NCBI GenBank assembly: GCA_036506575.1
Contig: DASXRM010000043.1
Location: 1-49,446, forward strand
Source of the DNA: Gemmatimonadales bacterium
GTDB taxonomy: Bacteria; Gemmatimonadota; Gemmatimonadetes; Gemmatimonadales; GWC2-71-9
Direction of reading: 5' to 3'
Length of the DNA: 49,446 nt
Shown: positions 2,339 to 18,138 of the stretch, one piece after another
Layout: every line of letters starts with the position of its first letter
Numbering within the stretch: the first letter of the stretch is position 1
Made by a program: the position numbers and the translations under genes
The notes under the pieces: model-generated
Databases searched by the model: none
Seen by the model: the letters and a program-made list of their open reading frames with translations, nothing else
Told to the model about the DNA's origin: nothing

Positions 2339-4657
2339 GTGTCTCGCCGGCCCGGTAACCCGCCGCTGCCCGCAGCCGCCCTCGCGGCCGGGGCACTACT
2401 CGCCTCCATCCTCACTGCCGTCCTCGTTGCCGGTCCCCCGCCGGCGCGGCCGATGGCGGTCATGGCGGTGGCGAGCACTATCATCCTTGCCCTCTCGATC
2501 TGGCGTAGAGGGTGGGAGGTTCCGCTCCACCTGGTAGCCGCGACCCTCCTCGGCATCGTTGCGTGGTGGGAGGAGGATCGGGTCTGGTGGATCTCCCTCT
2601 TTGCCAGCCTCAGCATTTTGGGAACCTTCTGGGTTGCTCTGGTCCGATCCCGCCGTCGGGCTCGAGAAGCCGAAGCCAAGGCCGACCAGCTCGCGGTTCA
2701 GGTCGACCGCCGCATCAGTGAGCTCTTTTCCCTCCAGGAGCTGAGCTACGTCCTTTCGGAATCGATCCAGCTAGACCGCGTGGTGGACCAGGTGGCCAGG
2801 TATGCCGCGCGCTTTCTCCAGGCGGATGGCGCGGTGGTAGTGCTGGTTGAGATGGAGGGACGGGCACTACGCGTCGTGGCGGCTTCAGGAACGCTGGAGT
2901 CGCTGGTAGGACAGGTGAGCGAAGAATCGGAGAGCGCGCTGGTGCGCTTCGCGATCGGGCGGGACCGAATCGAGGTCGCCCAGGGAACCGAGACTCCAAC
3001 GGTCGACCTCATCGGTGGCTTGCTGGTCCGCTCGGCGGCCGTGGCCCCGCTCCGAGCCCAGGGGATCACGATGGGCGCGCTGGCGGTAGCCGACCGGAGG
3101 GGCGGTCCGTTCACGACGGAAGATCTCTGGCTTTTGTCGACCGTGGCCACGAATGCATCCGTGGTGCTGGCCAACAGTCGCCTCTACGAGATGGTGCGCC
3201 GCAGCGAAGAAGAGTGGGAAACGGCGTTCAACGCTCTCACCGAAGGGATCGCGGTGGTAGGACCCACGGGCGCGATCCTCCGGGCCAACCGGGCGCTGGC
3301 GGCGCTGGCTGAACTGCCCGAATCCGAGCTGGTCAGCCGCGACTTCTGCGAGCTGCTTCCCGGAGCGTCCGAAGTCGTTGCCGGCCTGATCCAGGCGGCG
3401 TATCGCAGGGAGAGGACTGCCCCCTTGGTGGTGCGACTGGAGCAGAATCACCGGGTGCTCCGGTTGACCGCGGCGCCCCTGGCCGGCACGGAATCGGGCT
3501 CGGTGGTTATCCTGATCGAAGATGTCACCGAGCAGCGAATGCTCGAGGCTCAGATCATCCAGAACGACAAAATGGCTTCGATCGGGCAGCTGGTGTCCGG
3601 CGTGGCGCATGAGCTGAACAATCCTCTCACCTCGATTGCGGGGCTGGCCGAGCTCCTGCTGGAGCGGCGCCCGCATCCGGAGCTTCCGCGGGAACACCTC
3701 CGGGTAATTCACGATCAGGCCGAGCGCGCCGGGCGAATAGTGCGCAACCTGCTGACCTTCGCCCGAAAGGGTGTGGCCGAGAAGACGGCGGTCGATCTGA
3801 ATGACGTAGTCACCCGGACCTCGCTGCTGATCATGCACGAGCTGCAGCTCCACGGGATCGAGCTGGATTCGGCGCTGAGCGCGGATCCGGTTGTGGTGCT
3901 GGGCGACCGCTACGAGCTGCAGCAGGTCCTGCTCAATCTGGTGACCAACGCGGTACAAGCCGTGACCGGCGTGGAGGCCGGAAGACCGCGGCGCATCACC
4001 CTGTCCACCAGCCGCTCCGAGGGAGAAGCGGTACTCCGAGTTTGCGACAACGGACCGGGGGTGCCGAAGCACTTCGCTCCCTATCTTTTCACACCGTTCT
4101 TCACCACCAAGGCTCCCGGAGAGGGCACCGGCCTAGGTCTGTCGCTCAGCTACGGGCTGGTGAAGGCTCACGGCGGTGCTCTTGTCTACGAGCCGCCCCC
4201 CGAAGGCGGCGCTGAATTCCGGGTTACGCTGCCTCTCTATGAGTCCGAGATCCCCGCCCCAGTGCAGGAGCCGGTGGCCAAGGAGAACGGTCGCTCGGCT
4301 GCCCGTCGGATTCTGGTTGTGGACGAAGATCCCGCGGTACATCGGCTGGTGAGCGCCCTGTTCACTCCCGAGGGCCATGCGGTGGAGTCGGTGCGCTCGG
4401 GGGAACAGGCGTTGAGACTGGCGCGAGAGGGCGATTACGACATGATCATCGCAGACGTGCGGATGGCGGCCGGCGCGGCGGAGCCGTTCGCCCACGCGCT
4501 GCTCCATGCCTGTCCCCAGGCCCGAGGCCGGCTGGTAGTCGCTTGCTCCGGCGAAGAGGATCTCCCTGCCCCGTTATCGGAGCAGGCGCTTCGCCGGGTG
4601 AGGAAGCCGTTCAATCCCCGCGACCTCCGGAGGGTCGCCAAGGAGATTTTTCAGTAG
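2339..4657 (+). CDS. Hybrid sensor histidine kinase (TM segments - GAF - PAS - HisKA - HATPase_c - REC)
   Basis: GTG start and four N-terminal hydrophobic segments. H-box SGVAHELNNPLTSI; N/G boxes NLVTNAVQA, DNGPGVP, GTGLGLSLS. C-terminal receiver ILVVDEDP...DMIIADVRM. Confidence 0.9.
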   Translation: MSRRPGNPPLPAAALAAGALLASILTAVLVAGPPPARPMAVMAVASTIILALSIWRRGWEVPLHLVAATLLGIVAWWEEDRVWWISLFASLSILGTFWVALVRSRRRAREAEAKADQLAVQVDRRISELFSLQELSYVLSESIQLDRVVDQVARYAARFLQADGAVVVLVEMEGRALRVVAASGTLESLVGQVSEESESALVRFAIGRDRIEVAQGTETPTVDLIGGLLVRSAAVAPLRAQGITMGALAVADRRGGPFTTEDLWLLSTVATNASVVLANSRLYEMVRRSEEEWETAFNALTEGIAVVGPTGAILRANRALAALAELPESELVSRDFCELLPGASEVVAGLIQAAYRRERTAPLVVRLEQNHRVLRLTAAPLAGTESGSVVILIEDVTEQRMLEAQIIQNDKMASIGQLVSGVAHELNNPLTSIAGLAELLLERRPHPELPREHLRVIHDQAERAGRIVRNLLTFARKGVAEKTAVDLNDVVTRTSLLIMHELQLHGIELDSALSADPVVVLGDRYELQQVLLNLVTNAVQAVTGVEAGRPRRITLSTSRSEGEAVLRVCDNGPGVPKHFAPYLFTPFFTTKAPGEGTGLGLSLSYGLVKAHGGALVYEPPPEGGAEFRVTLPLYESEIPAPVQEPVAKENGRSAARRILVVDEDPAVHRLVSALFTPEGHAVESVRSGEQALRLAREGDYDMIIADVRMAAGAAEPFAHALLHACPQARGRLVVACSGEEDLPAPLSEQALRRVRKPFNPRDLRRVAKEIFQ

Positions 4658-6078
4658 CCGGCCGCACTGGCGGGCTTCCAGGGCAACACGCTGATTCGTC
4701 CTTTGACCTTCGACGTAGCGCTAGAGGCGTCCGCGGTGGCCCAGTAGTTACCCCCCGCCGCCAGGTCGGGCGCATCGATGAACCATCGGGTGGCCCGCAG
4801 GAAGATGTTGCCCGTGACCTCGCTGGCGTGCCCCTCTCCATCCAGCACCAGCCCATCTCCTACGCCGTCAAAGAGGTTGCCCCGCAGCTGGGCGCGGGTG
4901 GTCCGCTCCAGGACGATGCCTTGCTCCAGTCGCGTCAGCACGTTGTCGTCGATCCGATACCGGCGGCTGGGATCTCCCGGCTGCTCCGGTGCGCCGACCC
5001 GGATGCCCACAGCGCCTCCGATCAGCACGTTGTCCAGGATGGCGTTGTCGCTGCCATGGTCGCTGACTATGCCGGCCGTCCGCGAGCCGATGACGGTATT
5101 CCCCCGGAGGATGGTGCCTCCCGAGTGATCCATGCGGAAGCCTATGGCTGAGCTGTCGGCCCGGTTATCCAGAAAGGTATTGCTCCATCCGAAGGACGAG
5201 GTAAAGCCGGTCCGCAATGCGGAAGACGCGTCGTTACGGTAGACCAGATTGCCCACTGAGGGCCGGGTCGCGCGGCGCTCGCCAGCGAGCAGCAAACCCA
5301 GGCTCGATGCCGTAAGATCGTTGTCGACGATGGTGTTGGAGTCGCTCGCATCGCGCAGCAGAACCGCCGCGGCGCCGCAGTCGCCGGCGGGCACCTGAGA
5401 CTCGCAACGACGGGTGTGATCGGCGCGGTTCCGCGCAATGATGTTCCGGGACGAGCGCCAGAGATGGATGCCCCAGCCGTTGTTCATCGCGACATCGTTA
5501 TCGGCGATATAGCTGTCGCGCACCTCCAGGAGCGCGATGCCGTTCTGAGCGCCACGTGCGGTGATGCCGGTAATGCTCGCGGCGACGGTTCGCCGGAGCA
5601 GAATGCCGCCGCCGTATCGCTCGAACGTATCGGGTAGCACGACGTTCAGGTGGTCCATCGCGTCGGGGCGCGCGGGCGTGGAGCGGACCCCCTGGTCCCG
5701 GCTGCCCGAGAGGTCGGTGCCGGTAATCCGATGGGCCCGGCCGCCCTCCAGATGCACCCCGTAGCGATATCCGCGGATGGCACCGCCCATGATGGTGACC
5801 GCGTCCACCCCCTGGCTCGTGACCCCTGCCCCGATGAATCGGTCCGGCACCGAATCTCCGCTCTCGAGCACGACGCCGGTAAGGTCGATACGGGTCCCCG
5901 AAGCGGCGGCGATGATCACGCCCTGCTCGTTTCGGTCAGCGATCCGATAGTGACCGGGGCAGATCCGCACCTCACCCTGTACCTGTGTGCCCGACCGGAT
6001 GGGTCGAAGGCATGGCGCCGCGCCGCCTGGCACCGATGAAGCCATAACTGGTAGCAGAGAGATAACAGCGAGGATCAT
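4651..6078 (-). CDS. Secreted right-handed parallel beta-helix repeat protein (NosD/pectate-lyase-like fold)
   Basis: The internal ATG at 6078 overlaps the hisF stop (ATGA). Signal-like [15 protein letters not shown]. Recurrent beta-helix turns ([52 protein letters not shown]). The longer ORF-track N-terminus is Arg/Gly-rich and overlaps hisF. Confidence 0.65.
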
Positions 6079-6827
6079 GGTCGAACCGGATAGCCCCGCT
6101 CGCGAAGGTAAGCCCGCGCCCGCGGCAAAGAGGACTCCCGAAAGTGGAAGATGGTTGCGGCAAGAACCCCGTGCGCCCCTGCCTCCAAAGCATCCGCCAG
6201 GTGCTCCAGTTGGCCAGCGCCGCCGGACGCGATCACCGGAATGCTCACGCCGGCCGACACCTGGCGGATCAGCGGGAGATCGTATCCTTGGCCCGTGCCG
6301 TCCCGGTCCATCGACGTGAGCAGGATCTCGCCGGCCCCGAGCGTCTCCAATCGCCGGGTCCAATCGACCGCTTCGAGCGGCGTCTCCTCCCGGCCGCCGT
6401 TGATCATCACCACGAAGCGCCCGTCGATGCACCTGACGTCCACCGCCACCACCACACACTGGGTACCAAAGCTTTCGGCCAACCGGGAGACCAACGTGGG
6501 ATCACGCACCGCGGCCGTGTTGATGGCGGTTTTGTCTGCGCCCGCTCTCAGCGCCGCACCGGCATCCTGCACCGAGCGGATGCCCCCGCCCACCGTGAAC
6601 GGAATAAAAATGGCTTCCGCAACCCGGCTGACCATCCCGAGCGTGGTGCGGCGCGCCTCTGGGGTGGCCGAGATATCCAGAAAGATGAGTTCATCGGCGC
6701 CGTCGGCGTCATAACGAGCCGCCTGCGCCACCGGATCGCCCGCGTCCCGGAGGCTCTCGAAGTGGACCCCCTTGACCACCCGCCCACCAGCCACGTCGAG
6801 ACAGGGGATGATTCGCCGGGCTAGCAT
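6075..6827 (-). CDS. hisF: Imidazole glycerol phosphate synthase, cyclase subunit
   Basis: [23 protein letters not shown]... and ...[10 protein letters not shown] are classic HisF motifs. Start is the ATG at 6827, chosen over the Arg-rich upstream extension. Confidence 0.93.
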
Positions 6828-7288
6828 ACCCGGAGCACGTCGTCCACCGCGCCTGCGTCCCCCGTCCCCAGCAGCGCCACGATATCGTCCACCGCGCGGC
6901 GCTCGCGGGGCCAGGCAAAGCGGAGTCGAGCCCCCTCGGGAGCGAGCCATTCAAAGCGATCGTGCTCCGGCCCGAGCCGTACGGCGGCATCGGGAGCGAC
7001 GAAAGCGGCGAAGACCGGGACCAGAGCGACTTCGTCTGCCCGGTGCTGATAGAACAACTCGACCCGGCTCAAGTTGTAGAGCCTGAGCGGGGTGAGCCCG
7101 GTCTCCTCCTCCAGCTCCCGAGCCGCCGCGCCGGCCGGCTGCTCGGCCGGTTCGATGTGCCCGTGCACGCTTTCCCAGGAGCCCGGACAGCGCCCGCCAG
7201 GAGCGCGCCGAAGCGCCAGGCATTCCAGCGAGGACCCGGTCCTGCGCAGCACGTACACGTCCACCAGCGAGGTCCGCACCGAGGTCAT
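6821..7288 (-). CDS. NUDIX hydrolase
   Basis: Perfect NUDIX box [23 protein letters not shown] (GX5EX7REUXEEXGU). The ATG at 7288 overlaps the hisH stop (ATGA), and the stop overlaps the hisF start by 7 nt. Confidence 0.8.
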
Positions 7289-7905
7289 GGGTGCCACTCG
7301 GCGAAAGCGGCGAGCAGTGCAATTCCCGCGCGCTGAGACTTTTCCGGGTGAAACTGGGCCCCGATGATCGACCCTTCGCCCACGAGAGTGGGAAAGACGC
7401 CGCCGTAGTCGCCGGTCCCGAGTACATCCCCGGTGGGAAGGGAGGTCGGGTAATAGCTGTGAACGTGATAAAAGAATTGAGACGATTCTTCGAACGCCGC
7501 ACTCAGGAGCGCGTGCCGCCGACCGGACTCGGTCAGGTCGACCTTGGCCCATCCGACATGCGGAACCGGAAGTCCGCTGGAAAACCGTCGCACCCGGCCC
7601 GGGAGCAACGCCATACCGCGTGCCTGGGGGGCCTCCTCGCTCAGCTCGAAGAAGAGTTGCAGGCCAAGGCAGATGCCCATCACCGGACGTCCCGCCCTCG
7701 CCACTTCCCGAATCGCCTCGCCCAGACCGGTGGAGGCGAGCGTCCGCGATGCCTGGCCAAAGTTACCGACGCCGGGAACGAGTACCCGATCGGCCCGTCG
7801 AACTTCCTCGGGGTCGCTGATCAGGTCGGCCGGATGGCCGCTTACCCGGAGTGCGCGAGCCACGCTCGCCAGGTTGTTTACCCCGTAGTCTACCACGGCA
7901 ATCAC
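7285..7905 (-). CDS. hisH: Imidazole glycerol phosphate synthase, glutamine amidotransferase subunit
   Basis: MIAVVDYGVNNLASVARAL..., PGVGNFG, catalytic GICLGLQL, FHPEKS. The GTG start overlaps the hisB stop (GTGA). Confidence 0.93.
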   Translation of the reverse strand: MIAVVDYGVNNLASVARALRVSGHPADLISDPEEVRRADRVLVPGVGNFGQASRTLASTGLGEAIREVARAGRPVMGICLGLQLFFELSEEAPQARGMALLPGRVRRFSSGLPVPHVGWAKVDLTESGRRHALLSAAFEESSQFFYHVHSYYPTSLPTGDVLGTGDYGGVFPTLVGEGSIIGAQFHPEKSQRAGIALLAAFAEWHP

Positions 7906-8492
7906 AGCACGCCCTTGGTCGAGGGCACTCCACCCACCCGTGGATCCCGGGTGGTGGCGGCGTCGAAGGCCCGCGCAAAGGCCTTGAACGCGGCCTCGAC
8001 GATGTGATGCGGGTTATCTCCCCGGACCAGATCGAGGTGAACGGTGAGCCCCGCATTGAGCACCAGCGCCCGGAAGAACTCCGGGGTCAAAAACACATCG
8101 TACTCTCCGAGCATCTGCCACTTGGGAATCTCGATGTGGTATGAGAGATAGGGACGCCCGGAGACGTCTACCACGCACCGGACCAGGGCTTCATCTAGTG
8201 GGATCACGACGTCGGCATACCGCCGAATGCCGGCCCTGTCGCCCAGTGCCTCGCCGATCGCCTGGCCCAGGACGATGCCGGTGTCCTCGACCGTGTGATG
8301 GCCATCCACGTGGAGATCGCCGCGGGCCTCCACCGTCAGATCGAGCAGGCCGTGCCGGGCAAACGCGACCAGCATGTGGTCGAAAAAGCCGATCCCGGTC
8401 CTGACCTGTGCCTCGCCCCGGCCGTCGAGATCGACCCGGACGTGAAGATCGGTCTCATTCGTGGTTCGCCTGACCTCAGCTACGCGGGACAT
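7902..8492 (-). CDS. hisB: Imidazoleglycerol-phosphate dehydratase
   Basis: MSRVAEVRRTTNETDLHVRVDLDG..., DGHHTVEDTGIVLG, NPHHIVEAAFKAFARA. ATG at 8492 preceded by GGGGAG 6 nt upstream. The ORF-track extension reads through the repeat element. Confidence 0.92.
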   Translation of the reverse strand: MSRVAEVRRTTNETDLHVRVDLDGRGEAQVRTGIGFFDHMLVAFARHGLLDLTVEARGDLHVDGHHTVEDTGIVLGQAIGEALGDRAGIRRYADVVIPLDEALVRCVVDVSGRPYLSYHIEIPKWQMLGEYDVFLTPEFFRALVLNAGLTVHLDLVRGDNPHHIVEAAFKAFARAFDAATTRDPRVGGVPSTKGVL

Positions 8493-8514
8493 GCTGAGCT
8501 CCCCAAAAACATTG

Positions 8515-8706
8515 CCGCAGATAACCACGGATAAAGAACACGGATTATTCCTGGCCCACTCGGCGCTCCTCTCGCAGCAGCAGAGCTCGGCAATTTCTTG
8601 TTTAACAGCTGCTTTCAAACAAAACAACATCCCCGGACTCCACCTTGTGACGGGAGTCCCAAGCCCGCAAGGAGCGATCCGTGCTTTTATCCGTTTTTAT
8701 CTGCGG
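8515..8706. repeat. Microsatellite-armed inverted repeat, copy 2 (hisC-hisB intercistronic): arms 8515-8545 and 8677-8706, 131-nt spacer
   Basis: CCGCAGATAACCACGGATAAAGAACACGGAT versus the reverse complement of ATCCGTGCTTTTATCCGTTTTTATCTGCGG (about 26 of 30 positions pair). Each arm contains ACGGATAAA twice. The spacer has hairpin GGACTCC(8635-8641)/GGAGTCC(8653-8659). The hisC stop lies inside the right arm. Confidence 0.85.
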
Positions 8707-9899
8707 CCACCTTCTTCGGGTGGGTTGGAGAGGATCTCCTCCAGCGCCTGGATTACCGCGTCCATGTCATCGGCCGTGCCGATCGAAATCCGCAGACAAT
8801 CGGCCAGCTCAAGGGAGCTCGATAGGTCTCGTACCAGGATACCATAGTCCTGGTGCAGGCGATGGAAGAGTTGGGTTGCCGAGATGGCCTGACAGCGGAT
8901 CAGCACGAAGTTGGCCGCAGACGGATACACCGAGACACCTGAGACCCGGCGCAGGCGAGCCACGAATCGCTCGCGCGTGCCGATAACCTCGTGGGTGCGG
9001 GCGGTCAGCATCGAGGCGTGCCGCAGGGCGACCCGAGCGGCCGCCAGGGTTATCAGGTTCACGTTGTAGGGCAGCTTTCCCTTGGCGATCTCCCGAGCCA
9101 CAGCCGGATGCGCCAGCGCCACGCCAAACCTGAGTCCGGCCAGCCCCAGCGCCTTGGAGAAAGTCCGGAGAACGACCACGCGCGACGAGTGCCGGAGCAG
9201 TGGGATGGCGCTGGGGCCGCCGAAGTCCTGATACGCTTCATCGCATACCACCAAGGCATCGGTTGCATCGAGAACCCGTTCGACAGCACCCTCGGGGAGC
9301 GCCGAACCGGTCGGATTGTTGGGAGAGTTGAGCACCACGACCCTGGCGTGCTCCCGCCGGGAAGTCTCGATCAGCCGATCGACATCAAAGACGTAAGCTT
9401 CTCCCAGCGGCACCGGTAGGTAGCGCCCGCCCAGCACGCCGGTCAGCAGACGGTACAGCGAGAAGGTCGGTGATGGCGCGACAACCACATCGCCGGCGCC
9501 GAGCGTCACGGCAAGAGTCGCCTGGATCAGCTCGTTCGAGCCGTTCCCCACCAGCACGCCGTCCGGCAGCCATCCATACTGCGCCGCCAGCGCCGACTGA
9601 AGATCGCGCGGCACGAACTCCGGGTAGCGCTGCCAAGGCCGTCCGGCGACCTGATCCCACACTTCCCGCTTGAGCTCGGCGGGGAAATCGAACGGCGACT
9701 CGTTCTGGTTGAGCTTCCGTCGAGCCGCCGGAGCGGCCAACGAGTAGCCCGCCTGGCCGCGCACGGACGGCTTGATCAGCTCGAGGCCGTCCGATGCCGG
9801 CGGCGAGCCCACCGGGCCGGGAGCGTCGAGCGAAGGATTGGTGGGCTGGGTGGGTACCCGCTGAGCGGGGGATGGCGGCGGGGTACGCGGCCGGGTCAA
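8697..9899 (-). CDS. hisC: Histidinol-phosphate aminotransferase
   Basis: KLNQNESPF, GNGSNELI, NSPNNPTG and TFSKALGLAGLRFG (PLP lysine motif). The start as given is a TTG overlapping the stop of the upstream ATPase. The Pro-rich first ~40 aa may not be translated, so the start is uncertain. Confidence 0.88.
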   Translation of the reverse strand: MTRPRTPPPSPAQRVPTQPTNPSLDAPGPVGSPPASDGLELIKPSVRGQAGYSLAAPAARRKLNQNESPFDFPAELKREVWDQVAGRPWQRYPEFVPRDLQSALAAQYGWLPDGVLVGNGSNELIQATLAVTLGAGDVVVAPSPTFSLYRLLTGVLGGRYLPVPLGEAYVFDVDRLIETSRREHARVVVLNSPNNPTGSALPEGAVERVLDATDALVVCDEAYQDFGGPSAIPLLRHSSRVVVLRTFSKALGLAGLRFGVALAHPAVAREIAKGKLPYNVNLITLAAARVALRHASMLTARTHEVIGTRERFVARLRRVSGVSVYPSAANFVLIRCQAISATQLFHRLHQDYGILVRDLSSSLELADCLRISIGTADDMDAVIQALEEILSNPPEEGGRR

Positions 9900-12133
9900 G
9901 CGCGGTGGCGGCCGAGGACCGCCTCGAGCCGTGCCGTGAGCGAGCGGGCCCGGAACGGTTTGGTGACGAAGTCGTCGGCGCCCAGCTCGAAGACCCGCAC
10001 CTCGTTGTCCTCGTCGCCCTTCGCCGTGAGAACCATGACGGGAATCTCCCGGGTCGCGGGGCGGGAGCGGAGTTGGGCCAAGACCCCATAGCCATCGAGC
10101 CCCGGCAGATTGAGATCGAGAATGATCACGTCGGGGGCGAAGCGATCGACTTCGTCCAGTGCCTGGATTCCGTCCCGTGCTTCGGCGACCCGGTAGCCCT
10201 CGCGTTGGAGCAGATCTTTCATGACCCGGCGCAGCTGCTCCTCATCCTCGACCAGGAGCACGCAGGCCCCCTTGCCCCGTCCACCCGACACGATGCCATC
10301 GGTTGCGGTCGGCTCCTCGAGGAGCTCCATCTCCATCGATATCTCATGGGCAGCAGGTTCGGGAGCCACCGTGGCGGTTGGCGCGGGTGATGCGGTCCGG
10401 CTCCCGCGGGCAGTCCGCCGTGATGGGATCGGCTCGGGTGTTCTCGCCGGCGCCTCCTGAGGCGCATCGGTGACTCGGAGTAGCTCCTCGAGGGTGGATT
10501 CTCCCGCCAGGACATGGCGGAGGCCGCTACCCCACAACGAGCGCATACCCGCCGCACGAGCCGCTTCGGCGATCTTCTCCGCGGTGGCGCCCTCGCCGAT
10601 CCGGCGCTCGAGCTCCGGGTTCATCGTCAGCACCTCGACGATGCTGAACCTCCCCCGATACCCCGTCATGGAGCACTCCGAGCAGCCCACCGCCTGGTAC
10701 AACGTCACCCCTTGAGGGACGAACCGCGCCAGGCGCTCGCTGACCGGCTCGGTGGCTTCGATCCGGCAGGCGCGACACAGGCGGCGCATCAGGCGTTGGG
10801 CCACCACGCCGCGCAGGGCCGGCGCGATCTTGTACGCCTCCATTCCCATATCCACCAATCGGGTCACCGCATTGGGTGCGTCGTTGGTGTGGAGGGTGGA
10901 GAGAACCAGATGGCCGGTGAGCGAAGCCTGCAGCGCGATCTGGGCGGTTTCCTTATCGCGGATCTCTCCCACCAGGACCACGTCGGGGTCCTGCCTCAGG
11001 ATGGACCGCAAGGCGGCGGCAAAGGTCAGTCCCGCCTTCTCGTTTACCTGAACCTGGACGATGTTCTGGCCCAGCCGATACTCGACCGGGTCCTCCACCG
11101 TGACGATGTTGATACCTTCACCCTGCACCACACGGAGAGAGGAGTACAGCGTGGTGGTCTTGCCGGATCCGGTGGGGCCGGTGACCAGGATGATCCCTTC
11201 TTTGTAACCCAGCAGCTTGCGGATGGCCTGTTGCTCGTCTTCCGCCAACCCCAGGCTGTCGAGAGCGAGGTTGGTCGCTTTCTGGCTCAAAATCCGGATG
11301 ACGACTTTCTCGCCCAGCGACGCGGGCAATGTCGACACCCGAAGGTCGATCGCTTCTCCGTTCACCGAGATCCGCGCCCGGCCATCCTGAGGCCGGAGCC
11401 GGTCGGCGATATCGAGCCCCGACATGATCTTGACCCGGGAGATCAAGGGCACGCCGGCACTGCGCGGGATCTTCATGATCTGCCGCAGAACGCCGTCGAT
11501 CCGGTAGCGCACGACAACGCCACCCTCGATCGGCTCCACGTGAATGTCGCTCGCCCGGTTGGTTACCCCATCTGCGATCATGGTGTCCACCAACCGCAGG
11601 ATCGGCCGCTGGCTGGCCTGCTCCGCGCTGGCGGCGCTCTCCTCATCCTCCTTGATCTGCTCTACCTCGAAGTCGCTGCCGATGCCTTCGAGAAGCCGGG
11701 TGACTGCTGTCTCGGTATCGCGGTAAAGCTCGTCGAGCTTCTCCCGGATCTTCGATGGCGAGCCCAGGAGCATGCGAACCTCACGCCCCGTGGCGAACGC
11801 CAGCATCTTCTCGGCGTCCATGTCGAATGGGTTGGCGGTCGCCACCTCGAGATACGAGTCGGTCTGCCGCACCGGAACGACGTTGAACCGGCGGGCCAAC
11901 TGCTCGGGTACGGTGGTAATCAGCTTGGGGTCGGGCTTCGACAGGTCGGCGATCTGGAAGCGAAACCGCGCGGCGATCGCGCCGAGAATCTGCTGGTCGC
12001 TGGCCAGCTTGCGCTGCACCAGTAATTCCCAGAGGGACACGGCAGGCCCCTCCTCTTCCCGCAACGTCTTGACAGCTTCATCGGACAGGAGGGTCTCGAT
12101 GGAGGGGACCAACCATTCATCGGTGAACTGCAT
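9896..12133 (-). CDS. PilB/GspE-family secretion/type IV pilus ATPase fused to a C-terminal CheY-like receiver domain
   Basis: ATG at 12133 (MQFTDEW...) with a T2SSE N-terminal domain. Walker A GPTGSGKTTT, Walker B/His box DPDVVLVGEIRD...STLHTNDA, tetracysteine CRACR...GCSECSMTGYRGR. Then a Pro/Ala-rich linker and a receiver: VLLVEDEE...DVIILDLNLPGLDG...VMVLTAKGD...GADDFVTKPF. Confidence 0.85.
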   Translation of the reverse strand: MQFTDEWLVPSIETLLSDEAVKTLREEEGPAVSLWELLVQRKLASDQQILGAIAARFRFQIADLSKPDPKLITTVPEQLARRFNVVPVRQTDSYLEVATANPFDMDAEKMLAFATGREVRMLLGSPSKIREKLDELYRDTETAVTRLLEGIGSDFEVEQIKEDEESAASAEQASQRPILRLVDTMIADGVTNRASDIHVEPIEGGVVVRYRIDGVLRQIMKIPRSAGVPLISRVKIMSGLDIADRLRPQDGRARISVNGEAIDLRVSTLPASLGEKVVIRILSQKATNLALDSLGLAEDEQQAIRKLLGYKEGIILVTGPTGSGKTTTLYSSLRVVQGEGINIVTVEDPVEYRLGQNIVQVQVNEKAGLTFAAALRSILRQDPDVVLVGEIRDKETAQIALQASLTGHLVLSTLHTNDAPNAVTRLVDMGMEAYKIAPALRGVVAQRLMRRLCRACRIEATEPVSERLARFVPQGVTLYQAVGCSECSMTGYRGRFSIVEVLTMNPELERRIGEGATAEKIAEAARAAGMRSLWGSGLRHVLAGESTLEELLRVTDAPQEAPARTPEPIPSRRTARGSRTASPAPTATVAPEPAAHEISMEMELLEEPTATDGIVSGGRGKGACVLLVEDEEQLRRVMKDLLQREGYRVAEARDGIQALDEVDRFAPDVIILDLNLPGLDGYGVLAQLRSRPATREIPVMVLTAKGDEDNEVRVFELGADDFVTKPFRARSLTARLEAVLGRHRA

Positions 12134-12204
12134 GACGACTCTGATGACGAGGCAGAAGGATGGGTGGCCCTCGGGGGGAAGCCACTCGGGCAAAGATAAG
12201 AAGG

Positions 12205-14286
12205 TTACAGCAGGCCCCACCAGTCCCGATTGAAGTCCACGGTCACGCCGACGTGACCATCCCTCAATCCCACCCCTGCCTCGACCCGGATTAGGCGCAT
12301 GAACCATTCGATGGCAAGACCGGCCACCGGGCGAACGCCGGCGCTTCGATTCCATGGCAGACCGATAAGTGGCCGCCCGGTATACCCTGCGGCCAGGAAA
12401 GGAGCCACGGTCATGTGCCGGCCGGTGGATGCGAAAGAGCCCAGGGAGATTGCGGGAACGGGTACCTCGAGGCGCCACTCGACATGTGCCAGAGCCACCT
12501 CTCTACCCCCGTACGCCCGAAAGGGCTCGCCTACGAGGGTTCCGCGTCCTCCGAGGACGAAGCTCCGGTACGCCGGAAGCCCGCCGCTACCCAGACCGAA
12601 ATACCCTCGCGACAGCAACTCGCTCCTTCCCAGACGCGCGAGCCAGCGTCCCTCGGCAGTGGCTCGCAGGTACTCGCTGGATCCTTCTCCGGCCTCGAGC
12701 GAGACTCGTCCCTGGAGATCGCGATGAAGAGCGATGCCGCCACTGGCGCGCTCCAGCCCGAACCGCAGCAACCGGTGACTCCCCCCACCAAGCGGAGGGT
12801 TCGGGCGGTACCGGCCAGTGGCTGGTGATGCCCGGGTCGTCACCGAGTGGCTCTCTTCCACGCCCAGGCCTGCCATCAGCCAGGTACGCCCGCCAAGGCG
12901 GTGTCGCATTCCGAGATCGACGGCGTGGATCAGGACATAGTCTCCATAGTCCTTGCCCGCTTCTTGGGCCGACAGGGAGTTCACCAAAGGGGCTACGACC
13001 GGCAGATCACTGAAATCCGTGATCCGGCGAGAGGCACCGATGCTGAGCTGAGTGGCTCCCGTGCTCCAGCTCGCGGTTGCGGAGCCAAGCAGCCGGTGGT
13101 CGGAAGTGCCATACGCGATCGAGGGGCGAAACTGGATCCGGCTGCCTTCGAGCCCGGCGGCCCCGCCGAACCCGAGCGTGAGACCCTGCACCCGGGTCAC
13201 CCGTGCCACATCGCTCAGCGATCCGGTTGCGAGCCGGCTGGATGGCAGCCCGATGAGCGGCCGGGATCCCGCGATCCGCTCCACTTCTCCCCGAAGCGCC
13301 TCCATGTCTTGCCGGTTGACCGGCTGGGCTACCCCCGCGATAGCCTGCTCGAGCGGTTCATTCCAGCCCGAATTACCCCCCGGACGCAGCAGCCCGCCGA
13401 TCGCCGGACGCGCGAAGATGCCGGCCGGGAGCTCGGGATTCAAATCGTAGCTGTGGATCTCCCAACGTCCCCGGATGATTCCCCGCGCAGGAAAGTCGAG
13501 CCAGGTGGCCCGGCGGCGGATCTCGACCTCCTGGCGATAAGGCAACCAGAACCGATTCTCATACAAGGCGTTTTCCAGGACGACGCTGATGTCTTCCAGA
13601 TGGCGGTCGAGGTAAGCTACCGGGGTAAAGCTGAATCGAAAGCGAACCAGTTCAGCGGTCGCGACATCCAGGTAGAGCGTCCCTACCACGAGCGGGTGGG
13701 CAAAGGACCGGGGCCGGACCTGAATCTCGTAGACCGTCACCTGTCCAGTTGCGCTCCGGATCGCCGCCGAGTCGGACAGCGCGTAATCGTAGGCGGCGAT
13801 CCCCGCGGGCGAGAGTGGATGAGCTACGTCACGGACTTCATCGCCCTCACCGATGCGGATGACGTTGCCGAAGTTGTTAGTGACGATCCCCAGGTGGTCA
13901 CGGTGGTAGTTGATGTCGGTGGGCAGGAAAGTCCCATCGCGCCAGCCTAGTATGACCTGCTTGCTGTGATCGGGGGCCTGCCAATACACTTCCACGTCGA
14001 GCTCGTCCGCCTTGACCAGGCGCGGCGGCTCGGTCAAGCCCTCTCCCACCTGGGCCAGGAAAAAGACAAACCCGTGGGCTCGAGCGCGGTAGCTGGTGAG
14101 CGCCGAATCCGCTTGCACCGCCAGCCTGCGATCCACTGCGCGCCGCACCAGGGCGAGCGTCTCGGGAGTGTTCCAGGTTTGGGAGGTGAGAGGTGAGACG
14201 TAAGAGGTGAGAAGGATGCCGGTTATCACCACAGCTAAGGGCCAGGATACCCCTAGGCTTGCCCAGATGCACCTCTCACCTCTCAC
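12205..14286 (-). CDS. Omp85/BamA-family (bacterial surface antigen) outer-membrane protein, atypical N-terminal half
   Basis: The C-terminal ~300 aa resemble the surface-antigen beta-barrel (...YRSFVLGGRGTLVGEPFRAYGGREVALAHVEWRLEV...GLAIEWFMRLIRVEAGVGL...). The predicted signal peptide is encoded by the spacer and arm of repeat copy 3. The GTG start at 14286 is uncertain. Confidence 0.6.
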   Translation of the reverse strand: MRGERCIWASLGVSWPLAVVITGILLTSYVSPLTSQTWNTPETLALVRRAVDRRLAVQADSALTSYRARAHGFVFFLAQVGEGLTEPPRLVKADELDVEVYWQAPDHSKQVILGWRDGTFLPTDINYHRDHLGIVTNNFGNVIRIGEGDEVRDVAHPLSPAGIAAYDYALSDSAAIRSATGQVTVYEIQVRPRSFAHPLVVGTLYLDVATAELVRFRFSFTPVAYLDRHLEDISVVLENALYENRFWLPYRQEVEIRRRATWLDFPARGIIRGRWEIHSYDLNPELPAGIFARPAIGGLLRPGGNSGWNEPLEQAIAGVAQPVNRQDMEALRGEVERIAGSRPLIGLPSSRLATGSLSDVARVTRVQGLTLGFGGAAGLEGSRIQFRPSIAYGTSDHRLLGSATASWSTGATQLSIGASRRITDFSDLPVVAPLVNSLSAQEAGKDYGDYVLIHAVDLGMRHRLGGRTWLMAGLGVEESHSVTTRASPATGRYRPNPPLGGGSHRLLRFGLERASGGIALHRDLQGRVSLEAGEGSSEYLRATAEGRWLARLGRSELLSRGYFGLGSGGLPAYRSFVLGGRGTLVGEPFRAYGGREVALAHVEWRLEVPVPAISLGSFASTGRHMTVAPFLAAGYTGRPLIGLPWNRSAGVRPVAGLAIEWFMRLIRVEAGVGLRDGHVGVTVDFNRDWWGLL

Positions 14287-16509: not shown

Positions 16510-18138
16510 ATGCCCTACCGCCTCGTCAGCTTCTCCGGTGACCAGAGCTTCGAGCTGCCCCACGGCCGCAGTCTGGTGGTTGGGCGGGGGCTCAGCAGTG
16601 ACATCGCCATCTACGATCCGACCATTTCGCGGCGTCACGCCGAGCTGACCGTGGGGACCGACGGCGTGCAGGTCAAGGATCTGGGGAGCTCCAACGGCAC
16701 CTGCATCAATGGTAGCCGGGTGAGCGCCGGGCGGTTGCATCCGAACGACTCGATCACGTTTGGGAAGGTCCTCTTTCAGCTGAAAGAGATGAGACCCTCG
16801 GGACCAGGGTCGGGTGGCGCGACGGCGGCCCCGCCAAATCCGGTCCTCGGCGACACCATTGTGCGCCAACTGATGGTGAGTGGCGGGGGCCCGCCCGGGA
16901 TCACCAGTCGGGACCGAAGCTCGGGATTCGGTCAGCTTCGGGTCGCGGCCGCGACAGCGGAGGAGCGGCAAGCCAAGAAGCTCTCCCTCCTACTCGACAT
17001 CTCCCAGAAGCTCTCAGGTGAGTTCGACCTGGATAAGCTCCTTCGCAACGTCGTGGACATGATGTTCGAAGTCATGGACGTGGATCGGGTATCGATCCTC
17101 CTCCGGAACGAGAGCACCGGTGAGCTGGTTACCTCGATCTCGCGGAGCCGGCTGGGAGATGCGGAGTTTCAGCAAGTCCCCCGATCCATCGTAGACAAGG
17201 TGATCCAGGAGCGGGTCGCGGTGGTGTCCGACAACACCAGGTCTGATAGCCGTTTCAAGGGCCACTCGATCGTGACTCAGAGTGTTCGCAGCGCCATGTG
17301 CTCGCCCCTCATGGCCGCGGGCGACCGGATTCTGGGCTTGCTGTACGTGGACAGCGTGACCGCCGCGAACTCCTTCAGCGATGAGGACCTGCAATTCCTG
17401 GTGGCGTTCAGTGGTCTGGTGGCGATCGGTATCCGGAACAGCCGCTATGCCGAGCAGGTCCGCCGCGAGGCGCTGGTCCGCTCCAACTTCGAGCGCTACT
17501 TCGCCCCCAACATCGCGGCCGAGATCGCCCAGCAGGACGCGGTCGTCCCCCTGGGCGGCGATCGCCGGCCGATCACGGTCCTCTTCAGCGACATTCGCGG
17601 GTTCACCTCCATGGCCGAGTCCATGGGCCCGGACGCCATCGCGCAACTCCTGACCGAGTACTTCAGCGAGATGGTGGAGATCATCTTCGAGCACGGCGGG
17701 ACTCTCGACAAGTTCGTGGGCGACGCGATCATGGCGCTCTGGGGTGCTCCCATCGCACACGCCGACGATGCCGATCGGGCGCTTCGGGCCGCAGTGGCGA
17801 TGCAACGCGGCGTGAGCCGGCTGAACGAGCGCTGGGTGCTCGCGGGACGGCCCGAGATCGGTGTCGGAATCGGGATCAATTACGGTGAGGTGTTCGCCGG
17901 CAACATCGGGAGCCACCGCCGCCTCGAGTACACCGTGATTGGCGACGCGGTCAACGTGGCCAACCGGCTCTGCTCGGAGGCAGGACCGGGTGAGATCCTG
18001 GTAAGCGAGGCGCTGTGTCAGGTGGTGAAGGACCATGCGGACTACGAATACCTGCCCGCGATGGCACTCCGGGGAAGGACGAGGTCGGTGCAGGTCTACC
18101 GGTTGAAGATGGAGCGGGAGTTGGAGGCGCGAGAATGA
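16510..18138 (+). CDS. FHA - GAF - class III adenylate/guanylate cyclase
   Basis: FHA: LVVGRGLSSDIAIYDPTISRRHAEL...DLGSSNGTCINGSRV. GAF: LLLDISQKLSGEFDLDKLLRNVVD...RVSILL. Cyclase: ITVLFSDIRGFTSMAE, DKFVGDAIMALWGAP, GINYGEVFAGNIGSHRRLEYTVIGDAVNVANRL. Confidence 0.88.
   Translation: MPYRLVSFSGDQSFELPHGRSLVVGRGLSSDIAIYDPTISRRHAELTVGTDGVQVKDLGSSNGTCINGSRVSAGRLHPNDSITFGKVLFQLKEMRPSGPGSGGATAAPPNPVLGDTIVRQLMVSGGGPPGITSRDRSSGFGQLRVAAATAEERQAKKLSLLLDISQKLSGEFDLDKLLRNVVDMMFEVMDVDRVSILLRNESTGELVTSISRSRLGDAEFQQVPRSIVDKVIQERVAVVSDNTRSDSRFKGHSIVTQSVRSAMCSPLMAAGDRILGLLYVDSVTAANSFSDEDLQFLVAFSGLVAIGIRNSRYAEQVRREALVRSNFERYFAPNIAAEIAQQDAVVPLGGDRRPITVLFSDIRGFTSMAESMGPDAIAQLLTEYFSEMVEIIFEHGGTLDKFVGDAIMALWGAPIAHADDADRALRAAVAMQRGVSRLNERWVLAGRPEIGVGIGINYGEVFAGNIGSHRRLEYTVIGDAVNVANRLCSEAGPGEILVSEALCQVVKDHADYEYLPAMALRGRTRSVQVYRLKMERELEARE

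Follow-up and report, generated by a model that had tools for sequence, protein, structure and literature searches.

A PilB/GspE-type ATPase with a C-terminal receiver domain and a NUDIX partner in the Gemmatimonadales

The locus and the receiver-fused ATPase

The window analysed here is a 49,446-nucleotide stretch of DNA from a soil bacterium of the Gemmatimonadales (GenBank assembly GCA_036506575.1, contig DASXRM010000043.1, here C43), one of the 228 contigs of a 2.4-Mb assembly that is 76% complete. Its minus strand carries the gene for a secretion-type ATPase that ends in a response-regulator receiver domain (REC), which is referred to here as ATPase-REC. The order on that strand is an Omp85-like outer-membrane protein gene, a 71-nucleotide spacer, ATPase-REC, hisC, hisB, hisH, a NUDIX hydrolase gene, hisF and a gene for a NosD-like β-helix protein, while a 241-amino-acid open reading frame (orf241), trpE and a gene for an FHA-GAF-cyclase protein lie divergently on the plus strand. 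The coordinates of the features are collected in Table 1.

ATPase-REC is encoded by a single uninterrupted frame of 745 codons and contains three Pfam domains, MshEN (residues 65–142, 62 bits), T2SSE (PF00437, 441.6 bits against a cut-off of 24.9) and Response_reg (PF00072), the last two being matched over their whole profiles. All four boxes that define the T2SSE or PilB/GspE superfamily lie in one RecA-like C-terminal domain. These are Walker A (GPTGSGKTT, residues 319–327), the Asp box (VEDPVEY), Walker B (DPDVVLVGEIRD) and the His box (GHLVLSTLHTND), and they are accompanied by a tetracysteine zinc motif (C453, C456, C484 and C487) that is invariant in all 98 aligned relatives. The Walker A lysine, the Asp-box glutamate, Walker B and both His-box histidines are essentially invariant in the same alignment, and catalytic and receiver motifs together are conserved in about 95 of the 98. 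The full secretion-ATPase core described in the initial annotation is therefore present, with every named motif in place and the T2SSE profile covered from end to end.

The closest solved structures to the ATPase core are Myxococcus xanthus PilB (3JC8, E=4.5e-118), Geobacter PilB (5TSG) and Vibrio cholerae GspE (4PHT), and E values against the best solved PilB structures range from about 1e-115 to 1e-118. The top-scoring NCBIfam model is the GspE equivalog TIGR02533, with 557.7 bits against a cut-off of 630.25, and its match begins at residue 73. The PilB equivalog TIGR02538 aligns over its full length and gives 532.8 bits against a cut-off of 675.65. On these profile scores ATPase-REC is a member of the PilB/GspE superfamily that is neither an ordinary PilB nor an ordinary GspE, and we regard it as a genuine single gene for a predicted extension-type hexameric ATPase of the PilB/MshE family with intact catalytic boxes.

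The N-terminal region resembles MshEN, a c-di-GMP (cyclic dimeric guanosine monophosphate) receptor domain in which ligand binding depends on tandem 24-residue motifs of the form RLGxx(L/V/I)(L/V/I)xxG(L/V/I)(L/V/I)xxxxLxxxLxxQ (PMC10333796, PMC5013675). The corresponding segments of ATPase-REC read ..FTDEWLVPSIETLL.. and SLWELLVQRKLASDQQILGAIAAR, in which the motif Arg, both Gly and the Gln are all substituted. The first motif Gly is replaced by tryptophan in the second half-motif, as it apparently is in the first, and W7 and W35 are conserved within the clade. The canonical PilB of the relative G024, by comparison, has two perfect MshEN motifs (RLGEILLREGLVTREQLAQALTEQ and RLGYVLVKLGLVQELEITKVLARQ), and the lack of a c-di-GMP-binding pattern noted earlier for the window protein is confirmed against these intact copies.

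The C-terminal receiver has the features expected of the response regulator family, with an acidic pocket (E629 and D630), a phospho-acceptor aspartate (D673, codon 10115–10117) and the switch residues T703 and K725. These pocket residues are retained in 92–95 of the 98 aligned relatives, and the earlier description of a complete CheY-like receiver stands, with D630, D673, T703 and K725 all in place. The best NCBIfam receiver model is PhoB (TIGR02154), and the matches to the tail in the PDB are the receivers of PleD and PhoB. The domain is apparently phosphorylatable, in cis on the ATPase. The linker that joins it to the ATPase varies among the 98 relatives both in sequence and in length (40–88 amino acids).

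Such a junction could in principle be an artefact, with two genes, one for a PilB and one for a receiver, having been run together by a misassembly or by a frameshift, the second of which the initial annotation had raised as a risk, and the fragmented metagenome-assembled genome from which the window comes is a reason to consider it. However, full-length orthologues with 55–89% identity and the same unbroken frame occur in about 100 independent assemblies from three Gemmatimonadales families, long-read closed contigs included, and we consider an artefact to be so improbable that it is ruled out. Most of 40 relatives searched gave a full-length match (55–87% identity), and the remaining short or partial matches coincide with contig ends. 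In three assemblies with few contigs (G061, G080 and G153) the orthologue is present as two adjacent frames. These split copies are probably local assembly or homopolymer errors, and they fit errors in those genomes rather than in the window.

Table 1. Positions of features in the window
Feature	Positions	Strand	Basis or remark
Omp85-like outer-membrane protein (P0002), 693 amino acids	12205–14286	minus	DUF5686; models
LolA-superfamily N-domain, about residues 36–300	13387–14181	minus	AlphaFold and Foldseek (predicted)
Omp85-type barrel, about residues 360–693	12205–13209	minus	AlphaFold and Foldseek (predicted)
71-nucleotide spacer, Omp85-like gene to ATPase-REC gene	12134–12204	minus	sequence; consensus scan
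ATPase-REC gene (P0004), 745 amino acids	9896–12133	minus	one open reading frame; starts MQFTDEWLVP
MshEN-like region, residues 1–142	11708–12133	minus	both c-di-GMP half-motifs degenerate (DEWLVP... and SLWELLVQRKLA...)
T2SSE ATPase core, residues 171–553	10475–11623	minus	Walker A, Asp box, Walker B, His box, tetracysteine zinc motif
Pro/Ala/Arg-rich linker, residues 557–622	10268–10465	minus	alignment of 98 relatives
Receiver domain, residues 625–736, PhoB/OmpR-like	9926–10261	minus	PF00072, 113.4 bits
TTGA overlap of ATPase-REC stop (TGA) and hisC start (TTG)	9896–9899	minus	direct sequence reading
hisC-hisB-hisH insertion between ATPase-REC and NUDIX	7285–9899	minus	synteny
hisC	8697–9899	minus	TTG start
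hisB	7902–8630	minus	family assignment
hisH	7285–7905	minus	family assignment
NUDIX hydrolase (P0278), 155 amino acids	6821–7288	minus	PF00293, 64.2 bits
hisF	6075–6950	minus	
NosD-like β-helix gene	4651–6459	minus	
Hybrid histidine kinase, GAF-PAS-HisKA-HATPase-REC	2339–4657	plus	Pfam; candidate phosphodonor

Distribution and gene neighbourhood

In a sample of 201 genomes of the phylum (98 genera), the ATPase-receiver junction was detected at E<=1e-40 in 111, all of them in the Gemmatimonadales and spread over 47 genera. Nearly every genome of the window's family is positive, as is nearly every one of family f3 and a portion of those in family f2, and a scan of one genome per species gave at least 488 loci. 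The architecture was also sought exhaustively with HMMER among 1.84 billion cluster representatives, and the best 150 clusters at 50% identity were classified with phmmer. The receiver follows the ATPase in 111 of these 150 clusters, whereas it precedes the ATPase in only 5. One cluster has an ATPase with three receivers, 3 have an ATPase followed by NUDIX, 15 are plain ATPases, and 15 have ATPases in tandem (two matches in 14 clusters and three in 1). The roughly 14 tandem clusters of ∼1,000-amino-acid proteins, among them P0131, P0134, P0136 and P0138, have two complete T2SSE cores, and may represent an extension-type and a retraction-type motor fused to each other.

For one ATPase-receiver cluster the source was located, a 743-amino-acid open reading frame in a genome of the Zixibacteria (L128), which is the sole verified case outside the Gemmatimonadales. 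What looked like fusions in Alloalcanivorax and Paceibacterota proved to be pairs of neighbouring but distinct genes. A locus search with the representative P0241 gave no full-length relative, and one with P0154 retrieved mostly unrelated receivers. Copies in JGI/IMG carry the label ‘GspE/PulE/PilB-like protein/CheY-like ...’. Our literature search found no experimental study of receiver-fused PilB or GspE ATPases, and fused receivers are not mentioned in a 2024 review of PilB control (PMC11656802). The initial annotation had taken the arrangement not to be a characterized one, which agrees with this search, but had named a common architecture as something that would count against its reading. 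The C-terminal receiver architecture is in fact common among the best-matching clusters and not rare. ATPase-REC is the Gemmatimonadales branch of a large, experimentally uncharacterized PilB-REC family.

A comparison of the window's proteins by tblastn with the 8-kb flanks of the related loci reveals a block that is conserved across the order, comprising maf, the FHA-GAF-cyclase gene, trpE, in some cases orf241, the Omp85-like gene, ATPase-REC and NUDIX. The gene for the FHA-GAF-class III cyclase (16510–18138, plus strand), which has orthologues at L105–L112, belongs to this same block. In the window's genus, and in some of its close relatives, hisC, hisB and hisH lie between the ATPase-REC gene and the NUDIX gene. 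No his genes are found there at L093, L095, L096, L099, L102 and L108–L112, where the gap is roughly 0–150 nucleotides, and in family f3 (L105–L107) a hisB-like gene alone intervenes. Because NUDIX comes straight after ATPase-REC in other genera and families, the placement of the his genes is, as judged from gene order, a lineage-specific insertion into an older module. The ancestral order would be the Omp85/LolA-like gene, ATPase-REC and NUDIX, with hisC-hisB-hisH inserted later, mainly in this genus.

This history bears on the possibility that ATPase-REC functions in histidine biosynthesis or its control, since the initial annotation had the ATPase fused into the his operon. The stop/start overlap with hisC that it reported is correctly read as TTGA, hisC similarity begins at the ATPase stop in several same-genus relatives, and hisC, hisB, hisH, NUDIX and hisF are tightly packed downstream. 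However, the ATPase gene is not a conserved member of his clusters in other genera and families, and its fusion into the operon could not be upheld. To our knowledge, no his function requires a PilB-type ATPase. A role in the histidine pathway is very improbable and was rejected on the basis of synteny.

The gene that persists beside ATPase-REC is NUDIX, which the initial annotation passed over and which is the informative partner. It fills the slot between hisH and hisF that usually holds hisA, and there is no hisA within the window. Gene order in the relatives indicates that NUDIX occupied this place first and that the his genes came in later on either side. The Nudix box (GX5EX7REUXEEXGU) is intact, reading G43-x5-E49-x7-R57-E58-L59-x-E61-E62-x-G64-L65, and the protein matches no NCBIfam equivalog, being weakly NudB/MutT-like. 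In the Gemmatimonadaceae genera g7, g4, g50 and probably g59, the syntenic ATPase lacks the receiver and instead carries an in-frame NUDIX domain (T2SSE at residues 176–556 and NUDIX at 600–714 by Pfam), with open frames of 721–770 amino acids in several genomes. The window NUDIX aligns end to end with residues 590–742 of the L119 fusion (47% identity, E=3e-41), inside which the initial Met-Thr of the NUDIX protein is still present. Since an in-frame NUDIX replaces the receiver in these genera, the ATPase and NUDIX appear to be functionally tied, and this Rosetta-stone fusion is the strongest available evidence that NUDIX is a functional, as well as a conserved, partner of the ATPase.

A candidate phosphorylation-gated pilus motor

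ATPase-REC is encoded apart from any platform, pilin or secretin gene, and no cognate PilC/GspF platform accompanies it. As reported earlier, PilC/GspF (PF00482) has no match in the window, and the same is true of the incomplete assembly to which the window belongs. In the closest complete relative, G024, the sequences flanking the pilB-pilT-pilC cluster correspond, in the window's genome, to the end of contig C225 on one side and the start of contig C197 on the other, and three prepilin-type genes are present on contig C28 (19717–23756) of the window's genome. The absence of PilC is, on these matches, an assembly gap between C225 and C197. Because the pilB-pilT-pilC region falls in this gap and prepilin genes are present on C28, an ordinary type IVa pilus system is most likely present in this organism, and the label ‘orphan’ that had been given to the ATPase is unsupported for this genome. 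Ten complete or near-complete relatives each have one PilC-type platform, beside the canonical PilB, with Tad-type genes in addition in the two same-genus genomes inspected for them. PilC occurs in 65 of 69 high-quality genomes of the family, in most cases as a single copy. ATPase-REC shares about 41% identity with the canonical PilB of G024.

A sister paralogue with 47–49% identity to ATPase-REC provides a link to a pilin. Its locus in the window's family (L113:7854–11626; L253–L260) consists of a divergent aroA, the receiver-fused ATPase, a lone receiver and a prepilin-type protein with GFTLIE, and this arrangement is seen in nearly all of the 10 family genomes checked, although no prepilin was seen at the loci L117 and L118. 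By its gene content, the locus links receiver-fused ATPases to a pilin. In the family f3 counterparts (L114:7938–10280 and L116:7920–10175) the Walker A lysine is replaced by T or A and the His-box histidines are lost, while the four cysteines and a complete receiver are kept. These proteins have the appearance of pseudo-ATPases. A lone receiver comes after each of them, and at L114 a PMT/ArnT-like glycosyltransferase follows as well.

We propose, with confidence that is evenly balanced, that ATPase-REC serves the type IV pilus machine as an alternative motor or as a regulator, gated by phosphorylation. It would be a response regulator with motor activity as its output. D673 would receive its phosphate from a histidine kinase, possibly through a phosphorelay. 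In the PhoB/OmpR class the α4-β5-α5 face of the receiver drives dimerization, and in ATPase-REC this PhoB-type face might dimerize or re-dock once D673 is phosphorylated. Such a switch could alter hexamer assembly, ATP turnover or docking on a shared PilM/PilC base. One or two phosphorylation-gated motors would then exist in the cell alongside a c-di-GMP-gated PilB, and the NUDIX partner might remove or sense a nucleotide that affects the ATPase. The hybrid histidine kinase on the plus strand is a candidate phosphodonor to the receiver, as yet unproven, and its orthologue lies within 8 kb of ATPase-REC at 59 loci of families f1 and f3.

Several observations weigh against this proposal. The candidate kinase is of the hybrid type and would need a histidine phosphotransfer (Hpt) step, but no protein for this step was identified, and at the family f2 loci the kinase is not in synteny with ATPase-REC. 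ATPase-REC is never encoded with pilus genes, and several Gemmatimonadaceae genera without the ATPase retain PilC, so the pilus machine does not need ATPase-REC. Finally, the family f3 paralogues, in which Walker A and the His box are dead and the receiver is retained, hint that members of the family can work without motor activity.

Some of the same facts would suit a signalling ATPase outside the filament machinery, a phosphorylation- and nucleotide-controlled switch or scaffold that acts with NUDIX to regulate, for example, envelope or exopolysaccharide output. Such a protein would be expected neither beside pil or gsp genes nor with a platform of its own, could be dispensed with in several genera that keep PilC, and could persist as paralogues with inactivated catalytic boxes and a receiver; its partner is a hydrolase and not a membrane component. 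There is also a precedent in M. xanthus PilB, for which a signalling role towards exopolysaccharide production is described (PMC5544727). However, every catalytic residue is strictly conserved in the window's clade, and so are the zinc motif and the N1-type docking domain, as is expected of a working motor that docks on PilM/GspL-like partners, and the sister paralogue is operonic with a prepilin. We consider a purely signalling role possible but somewhat doubtful.

A more speculative extension of the motor proposal, which we think unlikely, is that a distinct clade of PilB-like motors has given up c-di-GMP sensing in favour of other inputs, with REC and NUDIX as C-terminal control modules that either replace each other or cooperate. 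The degenerate MshEN region, with conserved Trp in place of motif Gly, would bind another nucleotide, the NUDIX enzyme, tethered or co-translated, would destroy that nucleotide, and the engines would be interchangeable and compete for the single PilC. If so, motor output would integrate His-Asp phosphorylation with a nucleotide signal.

Pilus and type II secretion motors are controlled by c-di-GMP binding, by PilZ/FimX adaptors and by trans-acting response regulators, and a motor that is itself a response regulator would, if the proposal is true, be the most direct wiring from a sensor kinase to a filament machine. In domain order ATPase-REC corresponds to PilB as known from M. xanthus (3JC8), Geobacter (5TSG, 5ZFR and 6OLJ) and Thermus (PilF), having an MshEN_N-like region, N1, N2 and a C-terminal ATPase with a zinc tetracysteine, and all of its catalytic boxes are common to PilB. 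Unlike PilB, it falls below the equivalog cut-off, shares only the 41% identity given above with the group's canonical PilB, is not encoded beside pilT or pilC, lacks the c-di-GMP motif and has a C-terminal receiver and a NUDIX partner. The ATPase core and zinc motif are likewise those of GspE/EpsE (V. cholerae 4PHT and 1P9R), but ATPase-REC has an extra MshEN_N-like N-terminus that is not covered by the GspE model, and the complete relatives have no second, GspF-type platform, only the one PilC and, in the two same-genus genomes, the Tad-type genes. XpsE of Xanthomonas, a protein of the GspE type, does not bind c-di-GMP, and the same is predicted for ATPase-REC from the loss of the motif.

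Fusions of a receiver with an ATPase of this type have been listed before. Supplementary Table 4 of Wang et al. 2016 (Nat Commun 7:12481) includes REC-MshEN-T2SSE (for example, Geobacter Gmet_3473), GAF-MshEN-T2SSE and MshEN-T2SSE-cNMPbind, and neither MshEN-T2SSE-REC nor MshEN-T2SSE-NUDIX is among its entries. The listed receiver fusion is a database architecture only, without functional study, and its receiver is N-terminal, whereas that of ATPase-REC is C-terminal and lies behind a long linker. PilG/PilH of Pseudomonas aeruginosa, the PATAN-REC proteins PixG/PixH of Synechocystis and DrdR of Xanthomonas are response regulators that control PilB in trans (PMC11656802 and other papers). In these systems two-component phosphorylation steers the pilus extension motor, as we propose for ATPase-REC, but the regulators are separate proteins that bind or localize PilB, whereas the receiver of ATPase-REC is within the motor polypeptide itself.

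The C-terminal design is represented by at least 111 distinct clusters at 50% identity, for which we found no experimental study, and the Gemmatimonadales branch offers handles on it, since NUDIX is repeatedly fused or adjacent and the same cells provide a contrast with a canonical, c-di-GMP-sensing PilB. If the proposal is true, the branch would show one pilus platform being shared among differently gated motors, and a function would be assigned to a widespread, unnamed protein family of abundant soil bacteria.

The Omp85-like upstream neighbour

The gene upstream of ATPase-REC encodes a protein whose sole significant Pfam family is DUF5686 (45.9 bits), Omp85 itself being sub-threshold (16.4 bits, the cut-off being 24). 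The full protein was modelled with AlphaFold at a predicted local distance difference test score (pLDDT) of 70.7, and its C-terminal half matches the barrels of BamA and TamA in Foldseek with E values of 2e-11 to 1e-8 and a template-modelling (TM) score of about 0.6, normalized to the target. From these fold matches the C-terminal half is predicted to be an Omp85-type barrel. The N-terminal 265 residues (36–300), modelled separately, gave a pLDDT of 82.6 and a predicted TM score of 0.83, with Foldseek matches to 3BK5, LolA-like NE2245, LolA3 and RseB/MucB (E=3e-6). No POTRA repeats were found in the protein, in line with the earlier reading of its N-terminal half, and the model matches LolA-superfamily folds instead. 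The predicted barrel is like that of BamA/TamA but the protein lacks their POTRA domains, and the predicted N-terminal half is like the open barrel of LolA, LolB and RseB. We found no description in the literature of a LolA-like domain fused to an Omp85 barrel.

A consensus scan of the 71-nucleotide spacer called no promoter- or terminator-like site, and because no terminator was called the Omp85-like and ATPase-REC genes are likely co-transcribed. The spacer contains a small hairpin (12150–12185, minus strand; GTGGC ttcccccc gagg GCCAC), and there is no recognizable Shine-Dalgarno sequence before the ATPase start. The initial annotation had held that a neighbour not conserved beside the ATPase would speak against its reading, and the adjacency is in fact kept across three families. 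The Omp85-like gene is, however, present in all 17 Gemmatimonadaceae genomes tested, several of which have no adjacent ATPase. In G135, G033 and G115 it is followed directly by NUDIX, the ATPase being gone, and in a Gemmatimonas-like genus it stands alone. The gene is, from this survey, universal in the Gemmatimonadales and persists where the ATPase is lost, and a dependence of the gene on the ATPase was rejected on its retention among the 17 genomes. Adjacency alone is therefore no proof of joint function. It could be inherited gene order.

These observations bear on the idea that ATPase-REC powers a new trans-envelope pathway with the LolA-domain/Omp85 barrel, for example for the export or insertion of lipoproteins or lipids, gated by the receiver. 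The two genes lie on one strand with only the short spacer between them, in which no terminator was called, the conserved adjacency would fit a shared pathway, and a LolA-superfamily domain on a barrel suits a hydrophobic cargo. For Borrelia, an export system has been proposed whose genes cluster around an Omp85 gene and include those for a LolA-like protein and an ATP-driven transporter (PMC13078400). However, the ATPase is soluble and cytoplasmic, out of reach of the outer membrane, and the module contains no inner-membrane partner, the Omp85-like gene remains, with NUDIX only or alone, after loss of the ATPase, and the entire block from maf to NUDIX is syntenic, so that the adjacency may simply have been inherited. 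We regard a pathway of this kind as quite unlikely. The Omp85-like protein could itself insert lipoproteins or lipids into the outer membrane, in a phylum that has no known LolB.

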